DNA from: Neolecta irregularis DAH-3
Lineage: Eukaryota
Direction: 5' to 3'
Assembly (NCBI GenBank): GCA_001929475.1
Contig: LXFE01000935.1
Span: 1 to 37,896 of the forward strand
DNA length: 37,896 nt
Part shown: one piece after another, positions 33,019-34,564 of the stretch
Numbering within the stretch: position 1 is the first letter of the stretch
Layout: every line of letters begins with the position of its first letter
Translations under genes and position numbers: made by a program
Notes under the pieces: generated by a model
What the model was told of the DNA's origin: nothing
Databases searched by the model: none
Seen by the model: only the letters and a program-made list of their open reading frames with translations

Positions 33019-33257
33019 TTGCATTTGGATGATGATTAGATATTTGTATCCTAGATAATTATGTAAACCGATCAACGCAATTCGACAACGTTGCACATCA
33101 TTTCGAACCAGGTTGAAGTGAGTTAACTGGTTGTGTTGCATTTGTTTATTGATTACATATTGTATCAGATAATTATACCGATCAACGCAATTCGACGCCC
33201 AACTTTGCAACCAAATCATTTCGAACCAGCTGTTGAAGTGAGTTTACCTGGTTGTGT
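33019..33257. repeat. Two-unit ~120-bp tandem duplication of the MSF1 last exon plus 3' flank
   Basis: The distal unit carries a deletion-bearing copy of the exon at 33182-33257. Same unit as the 1-550 array. Confidence 0.92.
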
Positions 33258-34564
33258 GTAAGTGAACTATTAGTAAGAATAAGCACAGTTAAAACATACC
33301 GATCCATCGATCTATAATTTATTCGATAACAGAAACTCCGTCTATGCGTCTTTGGATGTATAAATTTATCAATCTTGGATTAGAGTATTAAAGGCTGGCT
33401 CGTACCAATTTGACATCTTCTACCAGGTCTCCGGCAATCCCTCTAATTAATTCCATGAAATCGTTTTCATGAAAGGAACTAGTATTTTCCCAGAATGAAA
33501 CATCCTTGTAACATGATGGATACATTGAGTAGGGTTTGAAAACCGATATGGAATTAGCTTGGAATTGTTCAAGAAATCTGGGATCAAGACTCCAGAATAA
33601 CCTGATATCCGGGATCCCAAAGAGAATCATTGCGATTCTCTCCAGGCCAAGTCCAAAAGCCCACCCGAGCATTTCTCCTTTTCCTGTTTGGTTAATTAAT
33701 TTACCAAGGCAGAGTACCAGAACGATCTAGAATACTTTGCTGGATGACACCACATCCTAAGAGTTCCAACCACTGATCATTCCACCAGACTTCAAGTTCC
33801 CAAGACGGGCTGGTAAAAGGGAAAAATGTTTCAACCCAACGTACTTTCATATGCTCACCGGCATTTATTTTCGAAAATATATCGGCTATTACTCCTTCAA
33901 GACTTGTTTTCAAATGACGGACCACAGCCTCAACTTGTTTGAGTGAATGTTGTGGTTGAACAGGGTTAGAAAGGGAGTGAAAAGGCGGTGCTGGTTGTTC
34001 AACCGATACCTGCAAACATTGAATCGTATTTTCTATATCGTGATGTTTTGGCCACAATTTTGCTCCTTCCATTTGATGAAAGACAGGATAATGGCTACGG
34101 TCGATGGCGTCTCGTCGGTATACATCTGCGGTAATCAGAAACTGATCGCTTTCACGGAAGGCAGCGGTTTGATGAGCGGATGTGTGTGTTCTTAGGACAT
34201 TGTCCTTGTTTATATAATATGTATCTGTCTTGCTTCGTCCTGGATGATCCATTGCAAAACCCAAGTCATCGAAATTGTCCTTTACCGAGACATTCGGCGG
34301 GAGGTTTGAGTATTTCGAGAATGCAGGGAAATGGGACTCTACTATATCTCTGATGATTCCAATTGGATGACAAGGTTGGAGGTGAATATTTCGACCTATT
34401 GAATTGAATATTGGTTTTGAAATGTTTGTCCATTCGTCTTGAGAATAAGTTGTCTTGTTGATTGTTATCAAATTGTTTTCTGTCGATGATGAGGAATTAA
34501 ATCGTATTAAAGGTCTCCCTCTAGGGCTACACAGCGATTTGATTGTAGTTGAGAGTTTTTGCAT
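33182..34564 (-). CDS. MSF1: Mitochondrial phenylalanyl-tRNA synthetase (3 introns)
   Basis: [65 protein letters not shown]; anticodon-binding domain ending [31 protein letters not shown]. Start at 34564 inferred. Confidence 0.97.

Follow-up and report, generated by a model that had tools for sequence, protein, structure and literature searches.

The last coding exon of the essential gene MSF1 has given birth to a real and young tandem array at a single locus of Neolecta irregularis DAH-3. The array is probably a non-functional series of about six units (~720 bp) lying between MSF1 and MGE1, which was collapsed to two units by the assembler, a 484-bp loop being put at the front of the scaffold. 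Few tandem repeats have a known seed; the present array is a clean example in which a conserved protein fixes the ancestor, and the changes in the exon part can therefore be polarised. The event is of a known kind, to which one more example is added, and it illustrates how arrays are concealed in this assembly, with loops parked at scaffold ends behind 10-N gaps.

The array behind MSF1

The window (the whole stretch of DNA analysed, 37,896 nt) is the entire contig G000:C1193 of an assembly of 14.18 Mb in 4542 contigs. The large MSF1 exon gave a 100% match to a Neolecta irregularis protein labelled mitochondrial phenylalanine-tRNA ligase, none of the remaining 119 homologs listed exceeding 54% identity; the first-pass annotation had both the identity and the coordinates of the gene right. 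MSF1 (minus strand) is convergent with MGE1/GrpE and divergent from MRPL16 (we take these three symbols to be the names of the respective protein families), and the array sits between two housekeeping genes:

32962-32964 (plus): stop of MGE1/GrpE, the gene convergent to MSF1
32965-33018 (no strand): unique DNA from the array to the MGE1/GrpE stop; AATAAA on minus at 32986-32981
33019-33066 (minus): distal spacer, 48 nt, without AATAAA, running into unique DNA
33055-33120 (plus): 66-nt node, identical to 1-66 and 485-550; proposed loop insertion point
33067-33135 (minus): dead exon copy of the fully deleted type, 69 nt vs 80 nt
33136-33181 (minus): 5 nt past the stop, then the 41-nt short spacer that follows the live exon, with AATAAA at 33150-33145
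33182-33266 (minus): terminal exon of MSF1 (mitochondrial PheRS), 85 nt; stop 33184-33182, copied part 33256-33182
33267-33299 (minus): final intron of MSF1, 33 nt (GT...CTAAT-AG), stop-free and in frame, outside the repeat unit
33300-34627 (minus): remaining MSF1 exons and introns, upstream; the position of the 5' end is approximate

Terminal exon of MSF1: The C-terminal end obtained from the last MSF1 exons, spliced in silico, was identical to that of P0001; among the 97 homologs of more than 430 aa, P0001 counted, 49 have LGVELR as their C-terminal end. The exon corresponds to FDX-ACB positions 69-94 of 94 (E 0.12 for the exon by itself, 8e-17 for the full protein); a second FDX-ACB copy was not found, the family search matching 33403-33528 alone. 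Comparison with orthologs suggests that the last intron is removed from the mRNA. The objection raised earlier, that 33182-33266 is not spliced into MSF1 mRNA, is not borne out: the exon is in frame even if the intron stays unspliced, since its 33 nt contain no stop, and splicing itself is a reading from orthologs.

Assembled units: Each unit consists of 75 nt of the terminal exon and 46-59 nt of 3' flank (unit lengths 110-127 bp, which corrects the ~120 bp given before). Two units are assembled at 33019-33257, and past the MSF1 stop there follow 5 nt, the 41-nt spacer, the 69-nt dead copy, the 48-nt spacer and unique DNA. The copy 33067-33135 was aligned to the exon with a score of 144 (shuffle maximum 31, n = 2000), with 4-5 deletions, 2-3 substitutions and 0 insertions, both small deletions quoted in the first-pass annotation being recovered; it begins 10 nt inside the exon, without splice acceptor. 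The dead copies are ~80% identical to the exon. A duplication directly behind the gene had been described and is indeed there; its extent had been understated, 4.5 more units being found at 1-550:

1-550 (minus): part of the array, probably displaced; exon copies 13-81, 135-203, 245-317, 372-444 and, partial, 497-550
82-134, 204-244, 318-371, 445-496 (minus): spacers in 1-550, with AATAAA on minus in each
551-560 (no strand): 10-N scaffold gap, a placeholder that gives no true distance

Tandem Repeats Finder reported at 1-550 the MSF1-end unit with period 127, 4.5 copies and 88% matches; 1-89 is identical to 33055-33143. Exon copies 13-81 and 135-203 are of the fully deleted type, and 245-317 and 372-444 retain GCCC. 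At 402-407 one unit has TGTGCA on plus against a TTTGCA/TTGCAC context in the rest; read in gene orientation, the hexamer has become its reverse complement through two adjacent changes, possibly by micro-inversion.

Array size and the readings weighed

Depth of run X1: All depth evidence comes from a single DNA run, X1, which may be the source sample of the assembly. Contig depth was 443 and 410 in the flanks and 850, 1286 and 1907 in the repeat contigs, the node 33055-33120 standing at 1286 vs 410-443; the maximum, reached inside the repeat by the most shared 31-mers, is 4.3-4.6x single copy. One X1 contig loops from 33151 back to 33034, and two long-spacer stretches unique to 1-550 occur in X1 contigs placed on 33034-33151 (two of the X1 contigs were placed on loop coordinates by us, from length and differences). 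In a 31-mer model of six X1 contigs the RMS was 1.88 with no pass of the 484-bp loop, 0.29 with one, 1.55 with two and 3.25 with three; the best fit, 1.1 loop passes, corresponds to the exon and five dead copies, ~720 bp, in a unit order taken from the graph (no single piece crosses the array).

A pure assembly artefact, with only one MSF1 3' end, had been named as an objection. The assembly is rich in gap-side duplicates; against this, the deleted unit reaches 4.6x flank depth and the copies share deletions vs the exon at ~80% identity. Because depth rises 4.3-4.6x over the flanks inside the repeat, the repeat is no assembly duplication, and this objection is practically out of the question. 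Conversely, the most shared 31-mers reach only ~4.5x single copy, and so no large hidden array of this sequence is present. The copy-number search of the genome proposed earlier was run with both queries, and the unit was found on C1193 alone among the matches listed, none on other contigs; with this and the ~4.5x depth the terms satellite and repeat family had to be given up.

Piece at 1-550: Ten gaps were inspected to see if 66 nt is a signature of the assembler. The left end of the gap is repeated in its own contig over exactly 66 nt at 5/10 and over 64-65 nt at 2/10, and over 9 nt or less at 3/10; pieces of 111-132 bp duplicating internal sequence were also found at the scaffold ends of C596, C2625 and C1151. 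Since both ends of 1-550 equal the 33055-33120 node and 66 nt recurs at gaps, the piece is probably a displaced graph loop on that node. That it should be a real second locus, the repeat already spreading as in the second stage of satellite birth, we hold to be quite improbable. The assembly does place it 32.5 kb away, the 66-nt signature is missing at 3/10 gaps, so the gaps are not uniform, and depth barely separates an inserted loop from a second locus (RMS 0.29 vs 0.39, one contig deciding). Both ends of the piece are nevertheless the 66-nt node, whose depth of 2.9-3.1x single copy compares with an expected 2.78 (inserted) vs at least 3.78 (separate). Nor does any loose end lead into unrelated DNA: among the X1 contigs listed, from which a filter can drop contigs, there are two loose ends only, both of long-spacer sequence contained in 1-550 and absent from 561-37896.

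The single inserted loop must also be weighed against an array polymorphic in length (for example, alleles of 2 and 10 units), i.e., an active VNTR whose assembled 2-unit path is a real allele. The sequenced material looks polymorphic, with near-identical 111-132 bp alternatives beside gaps in other contigs and single-base disagreements between X1 contigs and the window in unique DNA (32560 and 33777), and no 31-mer distinguishes a single fixed loop from a 50:50 mixture of loop-free and two-loop alleles. Two alleles show no direct sign, however, and allele frequencies would have to average 1.1 loops by chance; such polymorphism is considered unlikely.

Poly(A) signals and function: AATAAA serves as a poly(A) signal in fungi. 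On the MSF1 strand it occurs 31 nt past the stop and in all spacers except the distal one, which suggests that the mRNA probably ends in or just past the first spacer. Selection might keep the array because it supplies additional poly(A) signals or because it sets the 3' ends of MSF1 and MGE1 apart, the stop-to-stop distance having widened from ~107 to 701 bp. The hexamer, however, travels with the copied unit and another stands in the unique flank, the copies decay freely, and no structure was detected: a hairpin or structured RNA was sought and rejected (no fold, z -0.4 to 0.5; no Rfam match). A selected array is accordingly rated as very improbable, and a neutral one as most likely.

Decay of the copies and the MRPL16 gene end

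History of the array: The array would have started from one tandem duplication of ~130 bp, comprising the last 75 nt of the exon and 3' flank; its product is seen directly, and slippage or a template switch may have produced it. The copy behind the stop, without acceptor, would then have decayed mostly via deletions of 1-7 nt, and losses of this size are what the exon parts carry: 1-nt, 2-nt and 4-nt losses are common to all five copies, and three copies are additionally without GGGC and have one further substitution. The five copies share deletions missing in the exon; such sharing may reflect concerted evolution, though common descent is enough to explain it. Unequal exchange among misaligned units, the live gene end included, would have raised their number and mixed exon and spacer types, as the mosaic units suggest. 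Selection would keep the first unit intact; since net losses of 7 and 11 nt shift the reading frame, exchange into the gene would ruin the conserved C-terminus, and purifying selection likely guards the live exon.

Unit 234-277 equals the live end 33166-33209 in a 44-nt exact match that includes the short spacer. The favoured reading of this match is an unequal exchange in which the live exon and a dead copy took part; the alternative is stepwise decay, with the short spacer copied later. As the match fits exchange with the live exon, the copies should not be taken for a simple time line: the two units retaining GGGC look like intermediates, yet instead of older stages they may be products of recombination with the live exon. 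Relative to the long spacer, the short one shows four gaps and one substitution and the distal one two gaps; the long one is presumably ancestral. The claim that a gene end seeded a tandem repeat is borne out by the exon-derived units. That its ancestor is directly visible holds for the exon part, where the comparison with MSF1 orthologs did polarise the changes (the first unit keeps the ancestral LGVELR end); for the flank, which lacks an outgroup, the ancestor is a reconstruction. A metagenome search for an outgroup with a 20-nt unit motif gave 3 matches, all by chance (20-23 nt in DNA of 65-67% GC).

MRPL16 gene end: On the other side of the gene pair the following features were located:

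35178-35284 (plus): MRPL16 (mitochondrial uL16) terminal exon, E 8e-5 to mitochondrial uL16; 5' border put at an AG
35297-35495 (plus): 34-bp minisatellite of 5.6 copies (35297-35488) and edge unit (35468-35495)
35521-35577 (plus): 3' half of the last MRPL16 exon, stop region included, as a dead copy; score 68, shuffle maximum 30 (n = 2000)
35846-35907 (plus): 5' half of the last MRPL16 exon, acceptor included, as a dead copy, 62 nt vs 81 nt; score 70, shuffle maximum 31 (n = 2000)

The 34-bp minisatellite probably derives from part of the MRPL16 last exon via the edge unit 35468-35495, judging from sequence similarity (34-bp unit vs MRPL16, p about 0.02 in 500 shuffles; edge unit 24/28 identical). 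The MRPL16 repeat region had no match elsewhere in the genome.

Survey of local repeats: In 680,415 bases (4.8% of the genome) 25 local repeat clusters were found, of which the window holds 4; there were none in a shuffled control of 100 kb. By our reading the 21 clusters outside the window are coding (6), at gaps (4), GC-rich or simple (5) and other non-coding (6). In these 642 kb, 0/21 were shown to be gene-end derived, with one candidate remaining, C2514:52935-53264 (L048:2935-3264), a tandem duplication of ~140 bp that overlaps the end of a 66-codon open frame; it may be a third instance of a copied gene end (15 substitutions and 5 gaps, Pfam giving no convincing match). This is a weak negative: the sample consisted of large contigs picked via kinase matches, contig-breaking arrays are under-represented in it, and its 175 gene models missed both MSF1 and MRPL16. 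A genome-wide habit of gene-end duplication finds no support in the 680,415 bases.

Other features of the window: A 31-bp G-rich minisatellite (35711-35827, 3.9 copies) had no origin found in MRPL16, MSF1 or eIF3a. From 36500 to 37896 GC climbs to 0.57-0.69 in a putative eIF3a-like gene, recognised by translation, and G/C skew turns from plus to minus near 37700, at a 12-bp repeat (37725-37785); in the other GC-rich stretch, 11000-13000, the skew is +0.13 and then -0.22. A sequence of 31-39 nt occurs at 30798-30938 in two copies 110 bp apart, upstream of an acyl-CoA dehydrogenase-like gene. The stretch 6190-6427 belongs to a dispersed non-coding repeat of ~200 bp that is also present on C3066, C2514 and L012 (71-82% identity). 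Strand-skewed GC-rich low-complexity tracts form a dispersed family, 64-86% alike (L017, C3555:2211-2645, C3919:348-651 and 34546-37309, C3732:32406-33424, C2625:19015-19382).

Deletion excess: Three dead exon copies under five scorings showed 14-20 deletions, 1 insertion and 6-13 substitutions (1.2-2 deletions per substitution per copy at strict gap cost); in simulation the aligner did not turn a substitution-rich copy into a deletion-rich pattern. Dead copies of MSF1 and MRPL16 together had 15 indels per 10 substitutions (~1.5; counted by hand, events common to both MRPL16 copies entered once) vs 181 per 935 (0.19, top pair 0.6) among 40 pairs of dispersed repeats (Fisher p about 1e-6), the MSF1 exon by itself having 4 per 3 (p 0.017); 9/84 pairs had been removed, 6 being the array itself and 3 a gap bubble. 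A ratio of 0.22 was obtained for 35 GC-rich dispersed pairs and of 0.15 for a smaller, hand-picked set of 12; the values for the 40 and the 35 pairs give no support to an extreme deletion bias throughout the genome. In the available part of the respective sources, 801 deletions vs 374 insertions are given for Saccharomyces (PMC2817411) and 614 vs 179, a 3.5-fold bias, for nonallelic gene conversion (PMC3280953). The deletion:insertion ratio of the dead copies differs marginally from the former figures (p 0.018) and is not distinguishable from the latter (p 0.09). Of the known causes of the excess, the simplest is deletion-biased conversion between units of the tandem.

The single-array loop model alone leaves the deletion excess unexplained, and a local process could be added to it: error-prone repair or re-copying at the ends of the MSF1-MRPL16 pair, making short tandem copies and deleting bases meanwhile, perhaps triggered by fork stalling at the convergent MGE1 end or by repeated breakage close to the GC island (36.5-37.9 kb). 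Dead last-exon copies in both genes, the outside survey (0/21 in 642 kb, one candidate remaining) and the deletion counts (14-20 with 1 insertion and 6-13 substitutions; 15:10 vs 181:935) speak for it. On the other hand, the test is post hoc on n = 3 copies, two of them related, and the dispersed controls are unpolarised and older, some of them being probably coding sequence; the recent differences between units are for the most part substitutions (2 with 0 indels; 4 with 1), and the deletion:insertion ratio cannot be told from that of nonallelic gene conversion, as just given. Microhomology-mediated deletion was rejected (0.90 vs 0.70 nt over 21 deletions, no clear excess), which counts against re-copying too, as does the absence of a convergent neighbour at MRPL16; a gene-end repeat was looked for near the other GC-rich stretch (11-13 kb) and none was found. 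Local re-copying is kept as a tentative addition to the array model.

More tentative still, and rather doubtful, is a wider scheme in which the outer ends of the MSF1-MRPL16 pair undergo recurrent deletion-dominated re-copying, terminal exons passing through a dead copy to the 120-bp array and on to the 34-bp minisatellite, with the coding origin almost erased. If it were true, minisatellites would be born from gene ends with small deletions outnumbering substitutions several-fold over the genome background, and a live essential exon would still trade sequence with its own dead copies. Were both the local excess of deletions and the paired duplication of gene ends to prove general across the genome, they would point to a particular mutational path by which gene ends turn into minisatellites.

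Comparison with known systems

The MSF1-end array is a single-locus array and not a satellite family: its monomers stand head to tail (period-127 repeat, back-joint 33151 to 33034 in X1), yet there are only ~6 units in ~720 bp, and among the matches listed they are confined to C1193. Minisatellite units usually measure 10-100 bp. By the usual definition of a minisatellite or VNTR the array is alike in its single locus, few units and mosaic variants and unlike in its unit of 110-127 bp, above the usual range; the 34-bp repeat behind MRPL16 lies within it. The copies do not form an alternative terminal exon cassette, as they start 10 nt past the acceptor and lose 7 or 11 nt. They are a truncated part of one ancestral ORF, the ancestral copy being told from the derived ones by comparison (49/97 homologs end in LGVELR, as does the first unit), as in a partial tandem gene duplicate; no sign of a new gene was seen in them. 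In titles and abstracts of the open literature, the subscription literature lying outside the search, no gene-end-derived tandem arrays were found for Neolecta or other fungi. The main text of PMC5309816 gave by keyword no passage on repeats, on which its supplements may bear.

In the available part of the Ruiz-Ruano model, stage one is a de novo duplication of unique sequence that yields a short tandem at one site (PMC5615363). The MSF1 array agrees with this stage in being a local tandem, in its presumed growth by unequal crossing-over and in units with common derived changes, and departs from the model in having neither spread nor large amplification; the seeds named in that part of the source are rDNA spacers and transposable elements, whereas here the seed is the end of a coding exon still in use (PMC5615363). 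Deletion-biased decay of paralogs, as far as the accessible text of the sources goes, is similar in that deletions exceed insertions, neutral copies shrink and copies share deletions; it is dissimilar in that deletions in the dead copies also rival or exceed substitutions, a ratio of which that text gives no counterpart (PMC3280953, PMC2817411). With partial gene duplicates, as described in the accessible portion of PMC3449122, the array has in common the truncated copy, one ancestor verified by orthologs and a short amplified tract; it is set apart by copies that comprise the last 75 coding bases, have no acceptor, occur 5x and are frameshifted.
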